UHGV virus genome: UHGV-1338014
Length of the DNA: 34,123 nt
Source: a virus
Direction: 5' to 3' (one strand)
This document shows positions 53 to 9,268 of this stretch, one piece after another (position 1 is the first letter of the stretch; each line of letters opens with the position of its first letter). A model generated the notes under the pieces. It made no database searches. It saw only the letters and a list, made by a program, of their open reading frames with translations, and had not been told where the DNA came from. The position numbers and the translations under genes are program-made.

Positions 53-230
53 TGTATTGATTCACGTGAAGTACGAAAAAAACCGGGAGGACATTGGATT
101 ATTCGGGATTTGGCGGGATTAGATTTAGTGGGGCTTGCAAGCCTGTAGGATAGATTTTAGCCGTTACATCTTGAAACGCGAAAGATTGTTGGAAACAGCT
201 TTTGATTCATTAAAGACACGAAAAGCAATT
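53..230 (+). promoter_or_regulatory. Left end (attL) with putative transposase-binding sites L1-L3
   Basis: Repeated CGAAA(A)-containing motifs at about 61-82 (TTCACGTGAAGTACGAAAAAA), 160-180 (TTGAAACGCGAAAGATTG) and 199-221 (TTCATTAAAGACACGAAAAGC), spaced as Mu L1/L2/L3; exact site boundaries are approximate. Confidence 0.7.
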
Positions 231-391
231 ACTTCACGCATCATTTCAAGTACAGCTTCAAAAATGCTTCAAAAACGGTAACAACCAGGCTTTCAGCAAG
301 TGCTGTGTGTCAAAAACAATCATCACTGTTTGGGTATCTTACATATGTAATAACCTGGAGTGAAGTTTATGTCTTAGCCATTACCTGGTTG

Positions 392-916
392 TTATACAGC
401 CTTCTTTACATCGTTTTCTCTTACAGGGAAATTATGTTCTTTGCCTTCATACTGAGACAAAATCTCTCTCACTTTTTCCGGTGGTAATGCCTGAAGAGTT
501 TGCAGGGTTTTCTGTTGCTCCACAGTAATCCCTAATGCCTCTAATGCCTTATCTTTACTGACAATTGTAGGCATAAGTCCTTTAATCCCTGCTACACGAA
601 TGATCTCCACAGCTGCGGCCTGCTCATCTGGTGTTAAGAAGCTCATTGCATAAATTAGCCTCTCATCAACTGTATGGGCGATTGATGTATGCACTGGTTT
701 ATCAGAAAGTGAGGCTCCTTTAATGGCCCTGCGTGTTTCTTCTGGCAGACTGTTGATGTGATACTCATAAGCGACACCTTTCCCACCGTGACGCTGACGT
801 TTTACCCAATCTTCCGCCACAGCTTTCCTGGTAATGTTAGTCGCCAACTTTGGTACACCAGGCATCCCTTCCAGCTCTTTCGCATTAAACCATTCTTTGA
901 TTTCAAAAGACATCAT
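392..916 (-). CDS. c: Prophage repressor c (Mu/D108 family, 174 aa)
   Basis: Minus-strand ORF divergent from ner at the left end. Its N-terminus ([26 protein letters not shown]) parallels the N-terminal DNA-binding region of the transposase encoded at 1331 ([26 protein letters not shown]), the known repressor/transposase relationship in Mu-like phages. Confidence 0.85.
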   Translation of the reverse strand: MMSFEIKEWFNAKELEGMPGVPKLATNITRKAVAEDWVKRQRHGGKGVAYEYHINSLPEETRRAIKGASLSDKPVHTSIAHTVDERLIYAMSFLTPDEQAAAVEIIRVAGIKGLMPTIVSKDKALEALGITVEQQKTLQTLQALPPEKVREILSQYEGKEHNFPVRENDVKKAV

Positions 917-1101
917 TTAAAATCCTAGTGATTTCAATAGAGATAAAATAAATTCATATAAAAATCATACCGTTATGCAAAATTGCGGCAAATCCTATCA
1001 AATCACTATTGATTTGAAAGTGATTCCACACTACATTGCACGATATGCCGTGAGCTACTTTATAGCGTAGCTCACGGGGGAATCTGAAAGGATTACATGA
1101 A
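917..1101. promoter_or_regulatory. Divergent early control region (operators, early and repressor promoters, probable transposition enhancer)
   Basis: AT-rich spacer between divergent c and ner; repeated TGATTTCAA / TGATTTGAAAGTGATT motifs and a perfect inverted repeat at 1048..1077. The operator/enhancer role is by position, from Mu biology. Confidence 0.6.
1048..1077. promoter_or_regulatory. Perfect 11-bp inverted repeat CCGTGAGCTAC-N8-GTAGCTCACGG, candidate Ner operator (D108 type)
   Basis: Seen directly in the sequence just upstream of the ner start. I recall the D108 Ner site being described as 11-bp inverted repeats with an 8-bp AT-rich spacer, but this is from memory. Confidence 0.55.
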
Positions 1102-1323
1102 ATGCATATGAATAAAAGAACTAACAGCCAAGATTGGCACAGAGCTGACATCGTTGCAGCGCTACGAAAACGCAATATGTCACTAGCTGAATTGGGAAGA
1201 TCTAATCATCTTTCGTCTTCAACATTAAAAAATGCTTTGGATAAGAGATATCCGAAAGCGGAGAAAATCATTGCAGATGCACTGGGAATGACACCGCAAG
1301 ATATTTGGCCGTCTCGATACTAG
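1102..1323 (+). CDS. ner: Ner-like early transcriptional regulator (73 aa)
   Basis: Small ORF just upstream of the transposase gene; sequence [24 protein letters not shown]...IWPSRY fits the Ner/Nlp HTH family; AGGA-like RBS upstream. Confidence 0.85.
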
Positions 1324-1330
1324 GTGCGCT

Positions 1331-3319
1331 ATGAAAGAATGGTATACAGCAAAAGAGTTGCTCGGTTTGGCAGGTTTACCAAAGCAAGCCACTAACATTA
1401 CACGTAAGGCACAAAGAGAAGGCTGGGAGTTCAGGCAGGTTGCAGGAACTAAAGGTGTATCATTTGAATTCAATATCAAATCATTTCCTGTCACATTACG
1501 TGCTGAAATTCTGTTGCAACAAGGGAGAATTGAAACAAGCCAAGGGTATTTTGAAATCGCCCGCCCCACGCTGGAAGCCCACGATTATGATCGCGAGGCG
1601 CTGTGGAGCAAATGGGATAACGCCAGCGATTCCCAGCGCAGACTTGCTGAAAAATGGTTGCCTGCGGTTCAGGCTGCAGACGAAATGCTGAACCAGGGGA
1701 TTTCAACGAAAACGGCTTTTGCGACCGTTGCAGGGCATTACCAGGTCAGCGCATCCACTTTGCGGGACAAGTATTACCAGGTACAGAAGTTTGCGAAACC
1801 TGACTGGGCGGCTGCACTTGTTGATGGACGTGGAGCATCCCGTCGCAATGTTCACAAAAGTGAATTTGACGAGGATGCCTGGCAGTTTCTGATTGCAGAT
1901 TATCTGCGACCGGAAAAGCCCGCCTTCCGCAAATGTTATGAGCGTCTGGAACTGGCAGCCCGCGAGCATGGCTGGAGTATTCCCTCCCGTGCCACGGCCT
2001 TTCGCCGGATTCAGCAACTGGACGAGGCAATGGTTGTTGCCTGTCGTGAAGGTGAACATGCACTGATGCATCTGATACCAGCACAGCAGCGAACTGTGGA
2101 ACACCTGGACACCATGCAGTGGATCAACGGCGACGGTTATCTGCATAACGTCTTTGTACGCTGGTTTAACGGTGATGTGATCCGTCCAAAAACATGGTTC
2201 TGGCAGGATGTGAAAACCCGAAAAATTCTGGGCTGGCGCTGCGATGTGAGCGAGAACATTGATTCAATTCGCCTCTCGTTCATGGATGTTGTGACTCGCT
2301 ACGGTATCCCGGAGGATTTTCACATCACCATTGATAACACCCGTGGTGCTGCGAATAAATGGCTGACGGGAGGCGCGCCCAATCGCTACCGCTTTAAGGT
2401 AAAAGAGGACGATCCAAAAGGACTGTTTTTACTGATGGGTGCGAAAATGCACTGGACAAGCGTTGTTGCCGGTAAAGGCTGGGGCCAGGCAAAACCTGTT
2501 GAACGTGCTTTCGGTGTTGGTGGGCTTGAGGAATACGTTGATAAGCATCCGGCACTGGCTGGTGCATATACGGGGCCAAATCCGCAGGCAAAACCTGATA
2601 ACTATGGCGACCGCGCTGTTGATGCAGAGCTGTTTCTGAAAACCCTTGCCGAAGGTGTGGCGATGTTCAATGCCAGAACAGGCCGTGAAACAGAAATGTG
2701 CGGGGGCAAACTCTCGTTTGATGATGTTTTCGAGCGTGAATACGCCAGAACGATTGTGCGTAAGCCAACCGAAGAACAAAAACGGATGCTGTTACTGCCT
2801 GCCGAGGCGGTGAACGTTTCACGCAAAGGCGAGTTTACGCTTAAAGTTGGCGGCTCCCTTAAAGGCGCGAAAAACGTTTATTACAACATGGCGTTAATGA
2901 ATGCCAATGTGAAAAAAGTTGTGGTCAGGTTTGATCCACAGCAGTTACACAGCACGGTTTATTGTTACACCTTGGATGGTCGGTTTATATGTGAAGCGGA
3001 ATGTCTGGCACCTGTTGCATTTAATGATGCTGCGGCAGGCCGCGAATATCGCCGCCGCCAGAAACAACTGAAATCTGCAACTAAAGCAGCCATTAAGGCG
3101 CAGAAGCAAATGGACGCGCTGGAAGTTGCTGAACTGCTGCCGCAGATAGCCGAACCAGCAGCGCCAGAATCAAGGGTTGTTGGTATTTTCCGGCCTTCCG
3201 GTAACACGGTGCAGGTGAAATACCAGGAACCCGATGATGAATATGAAACTGATCGTGATGAATATCTGAATCATTCGCTGGATATTCTGGAACAGAACAG
3301 ACGTAAAAAAGCCATTTAA
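1331..3319 (+). CDS. A: DDE transposase MuA (662 aa)
   Basis: Size and position as Mu A; N-terminal winged-helix end-binding region, central DDE core region, C-terminal basic tail; translation closely resembles Mu A as I recall it. Confidence 0.95.
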
Positions 3320-3357
3320 TTAACGTTTAAACAAAATTTAATTACGAGGTTATTCAG

Positions 3358-4296
3358 ATGAATATTTCCGATATTCGCGCAGGACTGCGCACGCTTGTAG
3401 AAAGTGAAAAAGCGACTTATGCACAAATTGCACGCGAGTCTGGCGTGGCCGCAGGAACGTTAAGCGCATTCGTGAATAACAAGTACAACGGCGACAATGA
3501 ACGTGTTGCGCAGACGCTGGAACGCTGGCTGGAGAACTATCACCGTGCCGCAGAGCTGCCAGAACCACCACGTTTTGTGGAAACCAGAACAGCACGCCAA
3601 ATCTGGACGAGTATGCGTTTTGCCAGCCTGACTGAAAGTATTTCTGTTATCTGCGGTAATCCAGGTGTGGGAAAAACTGAAGCGGCCCGCGAATTTCGTC
3701 GCACCAATAACAATGTCTGGATGATCACCATTACCCCATCCTGTGCCAGTGTTCTGGAATGCCTGACTGAACTGGCTTATGAACTGGGAATGAATGACGC
3801 ACCACGCCGTAAGGGGCCACTCTCCCGCGCTTTGAGACGCCGTCTTGAAGGTACGCAGGGGCTGGTCATTATCGACGAAGCTGATCATCTTGGCGCTGAG
3901 GTTCTGGAAGAACTCCGCCTGTTACAGGAGTCCGCCCGTATTGGCCTTGTTCTGATGGGGAATCACCGCGTTTATTCAAACATGACCGGTGGTAACAGAA
4001 CGGTTGAATTTGCCCGACTGTTTTCCCGTATTGCCAAACGGACGGCAATCAATAAAACCAAAATTGATGATGTAAAGGCCATTGCGGATGCCTGGCAGAT
4101 TACCGGCGAAAATGAGCGGGAATTATTACAGCAGATTGCGCAAAAACCAGGTGCGCTTCGCATCCTGAACCACTCGCTGCGCCTTGCGTCCATGACCGCC
4201 CACGGCAAAGGTGAACGTGTTAATGAAGATTATCTGCGTCAGGCTTTCCGTGAATTAGACCTGGACGTTGATATTTCAACTCTGCTGCGCACGTAA
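3358..4296 (+). CDS. B: Transposition target-DNA activator MuB (AAA+ ATPase, 312 aa)
   Basis: Directly downstream of A; Walker A motif GNPGVGKT and Walker B-like VIIDEAD; length as Mu B. Confidence 0.93.
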
Positions 4297-4309
4297 GGAG
4301 AGCGAAATC

Positions 4310-4537
4310 ATGATGTCACGGAATATCAAAATGGCAACGGAAGTAAAGACCTGGTTACAGGAGCACGGCAGCCACGTCAACGAATCCTGGCTGGGCGTAG
4401 CCCGCCCGGTACTTGAAATCACGTGCCCACCACCGGAGCTGGTCAGAAACGCTGTCAGGATTATGGAGCATAAATCAGGGGTTGCCCGTTCCGTATGGAC
4501 GGCCCGCCTTAATGGTTGCCAGATTATCTGGCGTTAA
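4310..4537 (+). CDS. kil: Small early protein in the position of Mu kil (75 aa)
   Basis: First gene after B; the start at ATG 4310 is preceded by AGGAG, so the upstream extension in the ORF track is probably not translated. Assignment is by synteny only. Confidence 0.55.
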
Positions 4538-4569
4538 TAACGGCTTATTTATTTGTGAGGAATAACAAA

Positions 4570-4833
4570 ATGGCAAAAGTCATTATCGAAATCAAAAATG
4601 CGACATCTGAAGTTAAAGGGCAGCGTTTACGTACCAGTATTAACGTAGAACACAGTGCAGAGCTGGACGGCGATGAATGTACACTCGCTGGCATGGTAGC
4701 GTTACTGGTTCTGGAAAAAAGTCGGGATATTGTTTGCGAGTCAACCCATGAGGCCATTGAAATTCTGAAAAATGACGGCGTCATCACGGGTGGCAGTGTC
4801 ACAAAAACGACAGTTGAAGGAACACGTCACTGA
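4570..4833 (+). CDS. Hypothetical early protein (87 aa)
   Basis: ORF with GAGGA RBS 9 nt upstream of ATG 4570; semi-essential early region; function unknown. Confidence 0.55.
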   Translation: MAKVIIEIKNATSEVKGQRLRTSINVEHSAELDGDECTLAGMVALLVLEKSRDIVCESTHEAIEILKNDGVITGGSVTKTTVEGTRH

Positions 4834-4847
4834 AAGGAACGCTGACA

Positions 4848-5267
4848 ATGAACGCCAGAATCAGAAACGAAATCCAGGCATTAATTCGAATCAAAATGCG
4901 TAATAACAATGGCGGAGACTTACGCGAGTTTATTTGCGCGCGCGAAGTTGAGGGGTATGGCGAAAAGACTTACCTGATTGCATTTGACCATTACAGCATT
5001 TGTGCGCGTTATTGCGGAGAGGCGGTATTCCGCGCCATTACGTTTGGCAATGCTTTCAATGTGGATTTATGGGAATACGTCATGGACCGCGAATACATCA
5101 GCGCGTCAGACCCGGACGCACGGGAGCAGTGGCAGAACATCTGGCGCGATTACCGGCGAATGGCGAATGGCTGGACGCAGGGGACGTATTCTTCCCTTGC
5201 CCTGAAAGCGGTTCAGTTATCGCTGCGGCATATTCCGGCATCACTGCGCGCCCCCCTGTTGTACTGA
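4848..5267 (+). CDS. Hypothetical early protein (139 aa)
   Basis: ORF with AAGGA RBS; tightly packed in the early operon; no recognisable motif. Confidence 0.55.
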   Translation: MNARIRNEIQALIRIKMRNNNGGDLREFICAREVEGYGEKTYLIAFDHYSICARYCGEAVFRAITFGNAFNVDLWEYVMDREYISASDPDAREQWQNIWRDYRRMANGWTQGTYSSLALKAVQLSLRHIPASLRAPLLY

Positions 5268-5567
5268 GTGGTGACCGGAATGATGTGTAAGCGTAAACGC
5301 TGGTCACGCGAAGACCGGGAATTTATCGAAGCCAGTGTCGGGAAAATGACCGTCGAGGAAATGGCGAAAAAACTGAACGTTGCCACAACCGCTCTCCGGG
5401 CACATGCCAGAAGGTACGGAATATCGTTGTGTGTTTACCGAATCAGTGAGCACGACAAATATTTGTGTCGTGAACTTTATAAAGAAGGGCTGGCTATTCA
5501 TGTCATTGCCCAAAAGATGGAATTAAGCAATCGTGCTGTATCCAGTATTGTATACAGCGAATATTAA
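5268..5567 (+). CDS. Hypothetical small protein with helix-turn-helix-like segments (99 aa)
   Basis: ORF beginning at GTG 5268 (alternative ATG 5280); the segment MTVEEMAKKLNVATTALRAHARRYGIS looks like an HTH. Confidence 0.5.
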   Translation: MVTGMMCKRKRWSREDREFIEASVGKMTVEEMAKKLNVATTALRAHARRYGISLCVYRISEHDKYLCRELYKEGLAIHVIAQKMELSNRAVSSIVYSEY

Positions 5568-5587
5568 TTAACAGGAGCTTTATTTAT

Positions 5588-6112
5588 ATGGCTAAGTCAG
5601 CAAAACGAATCAGGAACGCCGCAGCGACTTATGTTCCGCAATCCCGAGATGCCGTGGTATGTGATATCCGCCGGATTGGTGACCTGCAACGCGAAGCAGC
5701 ACGACTTGAAACGGAAATGAATGACGCTATCGCCGAGATTACAGAAAAATACGCCTCACAGATTGCGCCACTTAAAACCAGTATTGAAACCCTTTCAAAA
5801 GGCATTCAGGGATGGTGTGAAGCGAACCGTGACGAACTGACGAACGGCGGCAAGGTGAAGACGGCAAACCTGGTAACCGGTGATGTGTCATGGCGTCAGC
5901 GCCCACCATCAGTAAGTATTCGCGGTGTGGATGCGGTAATGGAAACGCTGGAGCGTCTTGGCCTGCAACGTTTTATTCGCACGAAACAGGAAATCAACAA
6001 GGAAGCGATTTTACTGGAGCCGAAAGCGGTCGCAGGTGTTGCCGGAATTACAGTTAAATCGGGCATTGAAGATTTTTCTATTATTCCATTTGAACAGGAA
6101 GCCGGTATTTAA
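5588..6112 (+). CDS. gam: Gam host-nuclease inhibitor / DNA-end-binding protein (174 aa)
   Basis: Length and position as Mu Gam; translation resembles Mu Gam as I recall it (Ku-like end-binding protein). Confidence 0.85.
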   Translation: MAKSAKRIRNAAATYVPQSRDAVVCDIRRIGDLQREAARLETEMNDAIAEITEKYASQIAPLKTSIETLSKGIQGWCEANRDELTNGGKVKTANLVTGDVSWRQRPPSVSIRGVDAVMETLERLGLQRFIRTKQEINKEAILLEPKAVAGVAGITVKSGIEDFSIIPFEQEAGI

Positions 6113-6210
6113 TACCACCATTAATATTTAATTAATTCACACTCTTTTAATTATGGCGCGATGCGTCAGGGGATTGCTCGCGCCTGAATCTGATATCTGA
6201 GAAATAAAAA

Positions 6211-6741
6211 ATGATTGATGCAAAAATTCTGAACGGTGTCAGCACATTACTACGGGCTTACGGGCGTCTGACCTGTGGCGTTCTGGCTGAAAAAATGAAG
6301 ATGCCTCCCTCGTCAATGGTGTATTTCCTGCGTGATGCAGTTGATGCCGGAATGCTGACAGAATGCAACGGATTTTATGACGTTCCGCGCCCTCGTCCGA
6401 CGCCGCCAGTAAGACGAAACGCAACAACGGAACATCCCGATGTTGATGATGCTCGATGGTGCGCGTTCCGCCGCTCTTTGCCCTGGCTGGAAGGCAATGC
6501 TATTCCGGCACTGGCAAAAGAATTTGCGACAGGCGTACTGACCTGCGAGTCGGTTTACATCGTTGCAGAAGTGGGCGACGAGATGTGCAAACAGGGAATG
6601 CCCCGTTTTGTGATGGCGTATATCGATATCCGGCAGGGACGTTTTATTTGTGGCTCCAGTGGCAGGAATATCACCGACCACGTCCTGCGCTATCTCATTC
6701 TTGATTATTCACCGGCTCCGGTAGCGGTTGGCATCCAGTGA
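6211..6741 (+). CDS. Hypothetical protein with N-terminal winged-helix-like region and Pro-rich linker (176 aa)
   Basis: ORF with RBS; not recognisable as a canonical Mu early gene; function unknown. Confidence 0.5.
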   Translation: MIDAKILNGVSTLLRAYGRLTCGVLAEKMKMPPSSMVYFLRDAVDAGMLTECNGFYDVPRPRPTPPVRRNATTEHPDVDDARWCAFRRSLPWLEGNAIPALAKEFATGVLTCESVYIVAEVGDEMCKQGMPRFVMAYIDIRQGRFICGSSGRNITDHVLRYLILDYSPAPVAVGIQ

Positions 6742-6770
6742 AATCTTTTATTGCGAAGAGGTATTACGAA

Positions 6771-7160
6771 ATGAATAACGCAGAGAAAAATGAAATTCAA
6801 TCCACATCTGTCACTACCAGAAAACATCTTTATGATTTTTATGTCGCCTATAACCAGTGGTTAAAAAATGGTGCACCAGAAACAGAGGGGGAATTATTTG
6901 TCCGGTATTTTGGATTATGTAGCAATGCTTATAGTTATTTCGAATCCATCGGAGCATACGGCGAAGATGCAGCAGAACAATTGCGCACAGATTTTATCGC
7001 GAACGGACTGGATGAATTATTGCCTTTCAATGAGGACAGCGCGCACTACAAGGAAGAGTGCAGGTTTGAAAGGTGTCACCTGAATCTTGGTCGTGTGGCA
7101 TGGGTGGAAAAACACTGCATGAAGGAGATGGGGCAAAATGAGTCGCACATCCCTGATTAA
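6771..7160 (+). CDS. Hypothetical protein, AT-rich gene (129 aa from ATG 6771; frame open from GTG 6738)
   Basis: Visibly lower GC than neighbours; GAAGAGG RBS before ATG 6771; 3' end overlaps the gemA start. Confidence 0.5.
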   Translation: MNNAEKNEIQSTSVTTRKHLYDFYVAYNQWLKNGAPETEGELFVRYFGLCSNAYSYFESIGAYGEDAAEQLRTDFIANGLDELLPFNEDSAHYKEECRFERCHLNLGRVAWVEKHCMKEMGQNESHIPD

Positions 7161-7689
7161 ATTAATTCATGTCGCCCGGCGTGATCTACAACTCGACGAT
7201 GACACTTACCGCGCCTTTCTGGTGCAGTTCACGGGCAAAACCAGTTGCCGCGAGCTGACCGTCGCACAACTGGAACAGGTGCTCGATGCCATGAAAGAGC
7301 GCGGTTTTAAGAAGCAGAAAAAACATCCCCGCCGTCGCTTTAAGGGGCATGTCACACCGCGTGAGAAGATTTATAAAATCTGGCAGCAGATGTTTCAGGA
7401 TGGCTTTGTCGCTGATGGCAGTGATGCTGCGCTGGACAAATACGTTGCACGCCTGACGGCCAGACGTAATGGCGGTCAGGGTGTTTCCACGCTGGCCTGG
7501 TGTCACGGGGAATCGTTGCATGTTGTGCTCGAAACGCTCAAACAGTGGCATATGCGCTGCATCCGGGACGCCTTTGCCCGACATGGTGTGCCTTTACCTG
7601 TGAGCGAAACCGGGCGGGAGCTGCGCGGCTATGATGCACTGACCAGTGCGTATGCCCGCGCACGAAACAGCGGGAGAATTGCTGTATGA
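7138..7689 (+). CDS. gemA: GemA-like early protein (183 aa)
   Basis: Length matches Mu GemA and it sits immediately upstream of the Mor/C-family gene with start/stop overlap. Confidence 0.75.
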   Translation: MSRTSLIKLIHVARRDLQLDDDTYRAFLVQFTGKTSCRELTVAQLEQVLDAMKERGFKKQKKHPRRRFKGHVTPREKIYKIWQQMFQDGFVADGSDAALDKYVARLTARRNGGQGVSTLAWCHGESLHVVLETLKQWHMRCIRDAFARHGVPLPVSETGRELRGYDALTSAYARARNSGRIAV

Positions 7690-8096
7690 AACAGATGAAA
7701 GAGCAGGATTTATTCGAAGACTTCCGGGACGACAGTGTTCTGGAATATCTTCACGATTATCAGGAAAAATATGTTTACCCGGCGCTACTTTCAGAGCTGA
7801 ATGCTCTGCTGCGACAGGAACTGATAAGGCTTGGTGTTAACCCTGCCCACTCTCTTGAGCTGGTAGTGGCAATTTGCAATCATATCGGAGGGATTCAGGT
7901 ATATGTTCCGAAAGGGAAAATACTGGAAAATCTGATCAGAGACATGCGCATCTGGCGTGATTTTGATGGAAAAAACGTAGCAGAGTTGGTGCAGCGTTAC
8001 AAAGTGACCTACAAAACGGTATATCAGGCCATCAAAAGAATGCGAAGGCTGGAGCGTGGAAAATATCAAATGCAACTATTTAAGGATGAGCCATGA
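7686..8096 (+). CDS. mor: Mor/C-family transcriptional activator (136 aa)
   Basis: C-terminal region (HSLELVVAICNHIGGIQVYVPKG...NVAELVQRYKVTYKTVYQAIKRMRR) fits the Mor/C activator family; called mor rather than C because it directly follows gemA. Confidence 0.7.
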   Translation: MKQMKEQDLFEDFRDDSVLEYLHDYQEKYVYPALLSELNALLRQELIRLGVNPAHSLELVVAICNHIGGIQVYVPKGKILENLIRDMRIWRDFDGKNVAELVQRYKVTYKTVYQAIKRMRRLERGKYQMQLFKDEP

Positions 8097-8572
8097 AATA
8101 CTTTCCTCTTATGTTTTTACTGAGCGTATTTTGCGCTAATGCGGCAAAGCTGCCCTCTGAAGAGGTAATCAAAAAACGCCTGGCCGAAAAAGACCTCATT
8201 GCACTAAATAGCTGGAAGCCTCTTAAAGGGGGCGATTCAATTAAGAACGGTGGAACCGAAACTGCTCACAGCAAGTTTGGATTGTTTATGATTAATAATA
8301 AGGTCGTTAGTTCAACGACGACTGTAAAAGATTTTGATGATAATCCTGTAGGCGCTCTGCCCTCCTTTGCTGCATGTTCGCGGGTTGTTGAATCTGTAAT
8401 TGGTCAATTAACTGAAGAACAGCAGGAACGAGTTATTGACATGGTGGCTTCCGCAGCAAAAGTTAAAGGTTACGGACTAACGTATAAGATTCTGGGCTTT
8501 CACATTCAGACAAAGTTTCTCCCTATGGGGAAAAATATGATGATAGATTGCTCCATCAAAGGTGATGAGTAG
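8093..8572 (+). CDS. Secreted or periplasmic protein of unknown function (159 aa), AT-rich gene
   Basis: N-terminus MKYFPLMFLLSVFCANA|AK is a classical signal peptide (basic residue, hydrophobic core, A-x-A site); the ATG overlaps the stop of the upstream activator gene; followed by a strong intrinsic terminator. Confidence 0.6.
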   Translation: MKYFPLMFLLSVFCANAAKLPSEEVIKKRLAEKDLIALNSWKPLKGGDSIKNGGTETAHSKFGLFMINNKVVSSTTTVKDFDDNPVGALPSFAACSRVVESVIGQLTEEQQERVIDMVASAAKVKGYGLTYKILGFHIQTKFLPMGKNMMIDCSIKGDE

Positions 8573-8671: not shown

Positions 8672-9268
8672 ATGGAAAATCAAAAATTCTCCCCGGCCTT
8701 TGAACATGCGCTGAATTTTATTCAGCGTCCCGATATCGAAGGCGTCTATGTCAATGACCCCACTGACCGTGGCGGCGAAACCAAATACGGCATTTCTGAC
8801 CGCCGCGACGGTGTGATTGACGGCAAAACCGATGTCAGCGGCGACGGTAAACCGGATACCCGCATCAGGGATTTAACCCGCGAACAGGTCGCGCAGATTT
8901 ACTGGCGCGATTACTGGCTGCCTGCCGGATGTGATCAGTGGCCTGATGGCGTGGCGATCTTTGTGTTCGATGCAGCCGTTCAGCATGGCGTTAAAAAAGC
9001 TATCAGGATTTTGCAGGAAGCCGCTGATGTGGATGCTGACGGCATCATCGGCCCGCGTACCCGTAAGGCCGTGAGTCTGTCCACCCCGGACTGGTTGCTG
9101 GCCCGCTGCATTGTCCGTCGTTCCCGCTTTTATGCCGACATCATCAAGTCAAAACCCGCCCAGGGTAAATACCTGAACGGCTGGTTTAACCGCATGGAAA
9201 AGCTGACCGACGCCTGTCTGGAAATCATCGATACCCCTTTAGGCATCATGTCCGCCACGCGGGGGTGA
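8672..9268 (+). CDS. lys: Putative endolysin (GH108-like lysozyme domain plus peptidoglycan-binding domain, 198 aa)
   Basis: N-terminal DPTDRGGETKYGI and C-terminal DGIIGPRT motifs are typical of the GH108 / PG_binding_3 architecture; first gene after the terminator, in the Mu lys position. Confidence 0.7.
   Translation: MENQKFSPAFEHALNFIQRPDIEGVYVNDPTDRGGETKYGISDRRDGVIDGKTDVSGDGKPDTRIRDLTREQVAQIYWRDYWLPAGCDQWPDGVAIFVFDAAVQHGVKKAIRILQEAADVDADGIIGPRTRKAVSLSTPDWLLARCIVRRSRFYADIIKSKPAQGKYLNGWFNRMEKLTDACLEIIDTPLGIMSATRG

Follow-up and report, generated by a model that had tools for sequence, protein, structure and literature searches.

The three small ORFs located between kil and gam in the UHGV-1338014 virus genome are, with near certainty, full-length orthologues of Mu gp7, gp8 and gp9. 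They would encode three separate soluble proteins, namely a Gnarl2-type modifier of the host O-antigen (gp7), a tandem-HTH DNA-binding protein belonging to a conserved backbone (gp9) and a cargo protein that binds a host factor (gp8), a reading to which, taken as a whole, we give a probability of about 0.6. Its bases are of two kinds: orthology, purifying selection, the HTH fold and gene order with its variation were computed, and the O-antigen phenotype of Mu gp7 comes from the literature. Although Mu ranks among the classic model phages, the greater part of its semi-essential early region lacks an assigned function, as papers on Mu also state. The Gnarl2 phenotype affecting the O-antigen, described recently, can now be attached to one gene of this region, represented here by ORF87, and two kinds of genes can be told apart in the region: kil, gp9 and Gam or DUF3164 make up a backbone, while gp6, gp7, gp8 and others are cargo open to exchange. 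This split makes gp9 the candidate for a general role in the early programme, and gp7 and gp8 candidates for host-specific effects. The features concerned are given below by their positions in the window, i.e. the whole 34,123-nt stretch of DNA that was analysed.

4310..4537, + strand: kil, left border of the variable interval; 84% identity to the Kil of Mu, D108 and SfMu
4538..4569, + strand: kil-gp7 junction, empty here; gp6/E5 sits at the equivalent site in Mu, SfMu and D108
4570..4833, + strand: ORF87, orthologue of Mu gp7/E6/Mup07 (Gnarl2); ATG start, GAGGAA 8-9 nt upstream
4848..5267, + strand: ORF139, orthologue of Mu gp8/E7, assigned to the orphan family phrog_3690; ATG start, AAGGAA upstream
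5268..5567, + strand: ORF99, orthologue of Mu gp9/E8, predicted tandem HTH; 99 aa from GTG, 95 aa from the ATG at 5280
5307..5414, + strand: N-terminal HTH module predicted in gp9, residues 10-45 of the 95-aa form
5448..5555, + strand: C-terminal HTH module predicted in gp9, residues 57-92
5588..6112, + strand: gam, right border; Pfam Phage_Mu_Gam with an E-value of 1.3e-43, 90-95% to the Gam of Mu and SfMu

As the earlier note had described, the three ORFs (87, 139 and 99 aa, or 95 aa for the last one) are tightly packed and co-oriented on the + strand at 4570-5567, and the successive intergenic gaps from kil to gam amount to 32, 14, 0 (or 12) and 20 nt. Good ribosome-binding sites precede ORF87 and ORF139. 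For ORF87, the TTG start at 4516 given by a mechanical ORF list was rejected in favour of the ATG at 4570, which corresponds to the start of Mu gp7. For gp9, the ATG at 5280, preceded by GGTGAC, is invariant in the five phages that were aligned (Mu, SfMu, D108, E. coli TD225-C4 and UHGV-1338014), the codon at 5268 is GTG in UHGV-1338014, SfMu and TD225-C4 and ATG in Mu and D108, and database relatives are mostly called at 95 aa. All three products are predicted to be soluble and are devoid of a membrane-spanning hydrophobic stretch; ORF87 is acidic (predicted pI 5.3), and values of 8.5 and 9.4 are predicted for ORF139 and ORF99, respectively.

All three ORFs are under purifying selection, with dN/dS values against Mu and SfMu of 0.15-0.19 for gp7, 0.15-0.21 for gp8 and 0.17-0.25 for gp9 at dS of 0.19-1.2; for comparison, those of B, kil and gam range from 0.06 to 0.12. 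That at least one of these ORFs is a chance reading frame or a decaying remnant, and no real gene, might be suspected from the fact that ORF87 and ORF139 fall into no curated family and that the model obtained for gp8 is poor, but this substitution pattern, kept at dS up to 1.2, refutes it. The ribosome-binding sites, the conservation of the three ORFs at full length in ca. 50 Muvirus loci and in 92 E. coli genomes, and the phenotype observed when the Mu gp7 protein was expressed likewise render such a reading scarcely credible.

Positions ~53-7637 of the window match the genus Muvirus, at 91% for D108 and ca. 89% for SfMu and Mu. The annotated genomes of Mu, SfMu and D108 each contain four ORFs between kil and gam, which correspond to gp6/E5, gp7/E6, gp8/E7 and gp9/E8. 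The genes of UHGV-1338014 are thus rightly placed by the earlier note in the early semi-essential region of Mu, although its numbering (gp6-gp8) was off by one, since the ORFs present are gp7, gp8 and gp9 and the missing one is gp6, a 76-aa zinc-ribbon gene. DNA alignment indicates that the ca. 210 bp corresponding to gp6 are cleanly absent between the kil stop codon and the gp7 ribosome-binding site. The same arrangement is seen elsewhere in nature, E. coli TD225-C4 (97.5% identity) being one example, and the kil-to-gp8 interval measures 313-325 nt in 15 of ca. 50 Muvirus loci, UHGV-1338014 included, versus 512-538 nt in the others. E6, E7 and E8 have been in the Mu sequence record (M64097) for decades, and UHGV-1338014 adds new alleles but no new kind of element: this part of the window carries an ordinary set of known Mu genes and nothing beyond known Mu biology.

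ORF87 displays 74% identity with Mu gp7/E6 (NP_050611.1) over all 87 residues (E 3e-40), and belongs to phrog_10252 (E 1.5e-40, positions 1-87 of 87), a family that also includes Mu gp7. As Mu gp7 does, it follows kil (or gp6) and precedes gp8 within the early operon. Neither Pfam nor NCBIfam provided a name for ORF87, and no match to a defence system was detected with PADLOC. A function for Mu gp7 has nevertheless been approached experimentally: according to the supplement of Silas et al. (Nat Commun 2025, PMC12373910), gnarl2 (orf63, UDP0063) corresponds to NP_050611.1, i.e. to Mup07 at 4784..5047 of NC_000929. When Mu gnarl2 was expressed in wild E. coli, O-antigen bands were downshifted in ECOR1 and ECOR22 and infection by T5 increased 10^5-6-fold, the phenotype being specific to the host strain (PMC12373910). 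The same authors proposed that the small Gnarl proteins act on host O-antigen enzymes and are not enzymes themselves, and their AP-MS data gave no clear pattern for Gnarl2 and no clear host partner of any kind (PMC12373910); in the later literature, no paper resolving its direct target was found.

By analogy with the tested Mu protein, ORF87 would be a Gnarl2-type effector, that is a non-enzymatic binder of a host factor involved in O-antigen synthesis or modification, and its binding may result in an altered lipopolysaccharide in the infected or lysogenic cell. The two proteins have in common their size, their place before gp8 and their phrog family, and they differ by 26% of their residues and by the occurrence of gp6 upstream in Mu. 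We infer that the variant found here keeps Gnarl2 activity, a conservation that is presumed rather than proven because of these divergent positions and of the host-strain specificity of the phenotype. Gnarl1 and Gnarl3, the latter of which binds GalU and had galU identified for it through a multicopy-suppressor screen, represent the same kind of effect, in which a small non-enzymatic phage protein alters O-antigen and phage sensitivity; the three Gnarl proteins were named after this common phenotype and not after any sequence kinship, and AP-MS revealed an enrichment of the UDP-glucose pathway for Gnarl3 but no such partner for Gnarl2 (PMC12373910). The earlier view that the three ORFs have no recognisable function therefore does not apply to ORF87, through which clear homology to a characterised Mu gene exists for part of the interval, and it holds for ORF139, which is unassignable.

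ORF139 is a full-length homologue of Mu gp8/E7, with which it shares its length (139 aa) and position, and displays 83% identity with the Mu protein and 89% with that of SfMu. Its family, phrog_3690 (E 8e-86), is annotated as of unknown function. Searches against Pfam and PADLOC yielded no match, the sole NCBIfam match was far under its cut-off (14 of 40 bits) and sequence searches of the PDB returned nothing below an E-value of 0.2. Two profile matches, to the MuA subdomain 2ezh (E 1.1) and to katanin (E 0.24), were judged to be due to chance. When 5.8 billion proteins were searched, only copies in Muvirus prophages were found (72-93% identity), and a profile compared to 1.84 billion representatives retrieved one full-length cluster and one distant relative (P0058, 31% identity) that is flanked by MuB and Kil on a Mu-like contig. 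A further candidate for distant homology (P0024) was discarded as a frameshifted copy, and a scan of genome contigs for gp8 found nothing, while the loci fetched for gp9 yielded three more relatives (27-30% identity) in the same position between B and kil. The conserved core extends from residue 1 to ca. 108 and the 30 C-terminal residues are confined to Muvirus. The profile and structure-prediction searches suggested by the earlier note had a different outcome for two of the ORFs, with a tandem HTH for ORF99 (see below) and, for ORF139, an AF2 model of pLDDT 39 on a shallow alignment of 9 sequences that is of no use. ORF139 is a true orphan, restricted to its lineage. Its context suggests that gp8 belongs to the cargo of the variable kil-gp9 interval and would most likely bind a host protein, in host takeover or counter-defence.

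ORF99 is 89% identical to Mu gp9/E8 and occupies the same place just before gam. It matches phrog_323, 'transcriptional regulator, D5-like' (E 2e-27), which is also the RefSeq name of Mu gp9/E8, an annotation transferred by profile similarity. Our literature searches found no paper on Mu gp8, gp9, E7 or E8 and no experimental report on Mu gp9; a transposon-sequencing preprint that was considered as a source for gp8 and gp9 concerns other phages. The HTH-like segments that the earlier note had seen in this protein are real, and the AF2 model (pLDDT 81) predicts two three-helix HTH bundles in a tandem, or bipartite, arrangement, with helices at residues 10-19, 25-32 and 36-45 in the N-terminal module and 57-68, 73-80 and 84-92 in the C-terminal one (pLDDT 85-91). 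The best Pfam match, HTH_Tnp_1 (PF01527, residues 6-50, E 7.8e-5), scores 23.3 bits for a gathering cut-off of 24.1, which leaves gp9 outside that family, and the C-terminal module has weak matches to GerE, HTH_23 and Sigma70_r4. Against PADLOC, only HTH-level matches were obtained (E 0.003-0.007), which does not make ORF99 a member of a defence protein family, and, over all the PDB sequence searches, neither the individual sequences nor three profiles had a match below an E-value of 0.04.

Structural comparison of the gp9 model with the PDB using Foldseek gave as best match the bipartite DNA-binding domain of the Tc3 transposase (E 0.011), followed by Cbp1, IstA, a resolvase and RcsB. Among predicted viral structures, 15 matches below an E-value of 1e-3 were found, mostly to unnamed small phage proteins or to DNA-binding modules of endonucleases or transposases, and overall the fold most resembles transposase DNA-binding modules and GcrA. 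The Tc3 (1u78), IstA (8b4h) and Mos1 transposases and Cbp1 (2lvs), a tandem-HTH protein that binds CRISPR repeats, all have a linker between two three-helix HTH bundles, as in gp9, and their single modules superpose on those of gp9 at 0.6-1.9 Å over 38-47 residues; however, sequence identity is only 9-22%, gp9 has no catalytic domain, and it scores 20 bits for a Cbp1 cut-off of 140 bits in NCBIfam. As for the DNA-binding domain of GcrA (5yiu, PF07750), no Pfam GcrA match was detected in gp9 at E-values up to 1, and the C-terminal sigma-70-binding domain of GcrA is absent from gp9, which ends after the second HTH.

Such a generic fold supports DNA binding but names no target. The model suggests that ORF99, as a basic protein, would bind DNA through both HTH bundles. 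The earlier note had also stated that no family could be assigned to these ORFs, which stands insofar as no curated family names a function, but for ORF99 a molecular activity, tandem-HTH DNA binding, can be proposed from the model, though not a biological role. Among the points that count against our overall reading are two on gp9: its fold matches are all to generic HTH modules, with a whole-protein E-value against the PDB no better than 0.011, and no DNA site for gp9 was found in the 4200-6300 region.

Gene order was further compared among relatives. Genes similar to gp9 were found in 85 IMG/VR loci and also in Klebsiella, Raoultella and Pluralibacter genomes, in which identity is only 42-54%. 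Of the 28 divergent Mu-like loci, 25 retain the backbone B-kil-gp9-(Gam or DUF3164), which is partly visible in the other three. The order B-kil-gp9-DUF3164 followed by a 165-aa gene accounts for 23 of these loci and B-kil-gp9-Gam for 3, two of which also have the 165-aa gene; in one of the 28, B and kil are separated by a gp8-like gene, and two are short contigs that begin at gp9. Apart from the latter two, kil directly precedes the gp9-like gene (26/28). Extra small genes occur in three slots: zinc ribbons and gp8-like genes between B and kil, phrog_1518 ('host nuclease inhibitor') or, in Muvirus, gp6, gp7 and gp8 between kil and gp9, and an 83-aa protein (phrog_18464) between gp9 and Gam. 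It is this variation that designates gp9 as part of the backbone and gp7 and gp8 as exchangeable cargo, and because of its membership in the conserved backbone, gp9 would most likely serve the early programme, through regulation or the handling of DNA, and is less likely to have a role tied to particular hosts.

Gene order also bears on whether gp8 and gp9 are obligate partners in a two-protein unit, for instance a DNA-binding subunit with its effector or modulator. The gp8 stop codon abuts the gp9 start, an arrangement suited to translational coupling, and the two genes are adjacent throughout Muvirus. However, 24 of the 28 divergent loci have a gp9-like gene but no gp8, and gp8-like genes are found either between B and kil, where kil separates them from the gp9-like gene, or on a contig devoid of gp9 (L007, L120, L125 and L128), making an obligate pair quite unlikely.

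Rfam families, terminator-like sites and RNA elements were searched for in the 4000-6300 region, and + strand promoter-like sites and operator-like inverted repeats, by consensus scans, in 4200-6300; none was found. This fits the published view of the Mu semi-essential region as a segment of a long transcript made early from Pe and, by analogy with Mu, the three ORFs would be translated from such a transcript, also carrying A, B, kil and gam. In lysogens of Mu, transcription at a low level arises from Pe and Pe*. The same scans bear on the possibility that gp9 is an Aca-like autoregulator of the upstream counter-defence genes gp6, gp7 and gp8, the whole forming one regulated module. In its favour are the location of a conserved HTH gene after a hypervariable accessory interval, the abutting of gp8 and gp9 and their adjacency in every surveyed Muvirus locus in which both were detected. 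Yet in most of the divergent loci the gp9-like gene comes right after kil with no accessory gene, no promoter-like site on the + strand and no operator-like inverted repeat, which Aca-type autoregulators have upstream of their accessory genes, was detected by the consensus scans before ORF87 or kil, and the description of the region in Mu as part of the long Pe transcript also speaks against a module of this type, which we regard as decidedly improbable.

Further indications on gp9 came from the comparison of UHGV-1338014 with a Klebsiella Mu-like prophage (L008, 6001-6288), in which the C-terminal module of gp9 is 76% identical, the same value as for MuB, versus 26% for MuA, 43% for Kil and 41% for the N-terminal module of gp9. 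That the C-terminal HTH is as conserved as MuB suggests that its recognition target is conserved across phages having very different transposases. The number of modules itself varies, since in the gp9 homologue of Pluralibacter gergoviae (P0047, 153 aa; L010, 6001-6462) the conserved C-terminal module is preceded by two copies of the N-terminal HTH module. In E. coli STEC388 (L005, 1993-2817), RefSeq reports an internal stop in gp9 and a frameshift in gam, indicating that some resident prophage copies are decaying.

A role for gp9 as an accessory factor of transposition or replication, which would bind Mu DNA or work with MuB, was also considered. Against it, MuA, MuB, HU and IHF are sufficient to reconstitute Mu transposition in vitro, phages deleted for the semi-essential region are viable and still grow, the HTH fold is generic, and the low conservation of MuA argues against the binding of phage-specific ends. 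On the other hand, the closest folds to gp9 are DNA-binding modules of the transposase type (IstA, Tc3, mariner and resolvase), its score falls just under the HTH_Tnp_1 cut-off, it is always located two genes after B, and its C-terminal module is conserved to the same degree as MuB and more than MuA and kil. The factor could then correspond to cim or arm, two classical genetic functions that, to our knowledge, have never been tied to an ORF, and that are listed among the functions of the region (PMC4553209). Overall this role appears doubtful. The account of three separate proteins is stronger than the Aca-like regulator, the transposition helper and the obligate pair. A broader combination, in which gp8 would found a new fold family devoted to host takeover or counter-defence and confined to Mu-like phages, gp9 would carry an old Mu function (immunity control or modulation of replication) through its conserved C-terminal HTH, and the Mu- and D108-type gp7 cassettes would be interchangeable effectors for different host surface chemistries, is unlikely to hold in all its parts together.

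Within Muvirus (loci L001-L055), the kil-to-gp8 interval behaves as a two-position cassette site. The first position is occupied by the gp6 zinc ribbon (phrog_3786), by an unrelated 70-aa protein starting with MMVINIHD... (phrog_3375) or by nothing, and the second by a gp7 of either the Mu type (phrog_10252) or the D108 type (phrog_2230), copies of the latter being 39-100% identical. The two gp7 types have only their first ten codons in common, and homology between them is not supported, as the hhalign probability of 66-69% obtained with the first 10 residues drops to 0.5% without them. A third type, the 83-aa protein beginning with 'MAKQIITI' that is found between gp9 and gam, aligns to either gp7 type over the first 7-9 residues only. 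These otherwise unrelated small proteins all start with MAK(V/Q)(I/V)I (window positions 4570-4600; L003, L005, L138 and L139), a common start suggestive of a conserved 5' junction at which cassettes are exchanged.

Proteins of phrog_1518 (E 1e-34; 85-100 aa, with the motif ITAYAWASGLIEFG) occupy the slot between kil and the gp9-like gene in L116, L120, L122, L127, L129 and L133-L135, and in L139 the corresponding gene sits between the gp9-like gene and gam; carriers also have Gam or DUF3164 downstream. In UHGV-1338014, an 18-nt direct repeat, GGAATA(T/A)CAAAATGGCAA, was detected at 4320-4337 inside kil (codons R-N-I-K-M-A) and at 4559-4576, over the ribosome-binding site and start of ORF87. 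It could be due to chance, correspond to an internal kil start or mark a recombination point where gp6 is missing.

Finally, the window corresponds to a mosaic prophage. Its left end is Muvirus-like through part of gemA (53-7637), while from ca. 7637 rightward no close relative was found among 50,697 phage records, the best being Klebsiella phage Kp4866-3 with 72.5% over 14%. This right part (7637-34123) includes mor, a 159-aa ORF with a signal peptide (8093-8572), a GH108-type lysin (8672-9268) and the whole late region. Its GC content is 55-60%, versus 41-51% in the early region, and gene order after mor resembles that of two Mu-like prophages, L008 from Klebsiella and L010 from Pluralibacter.
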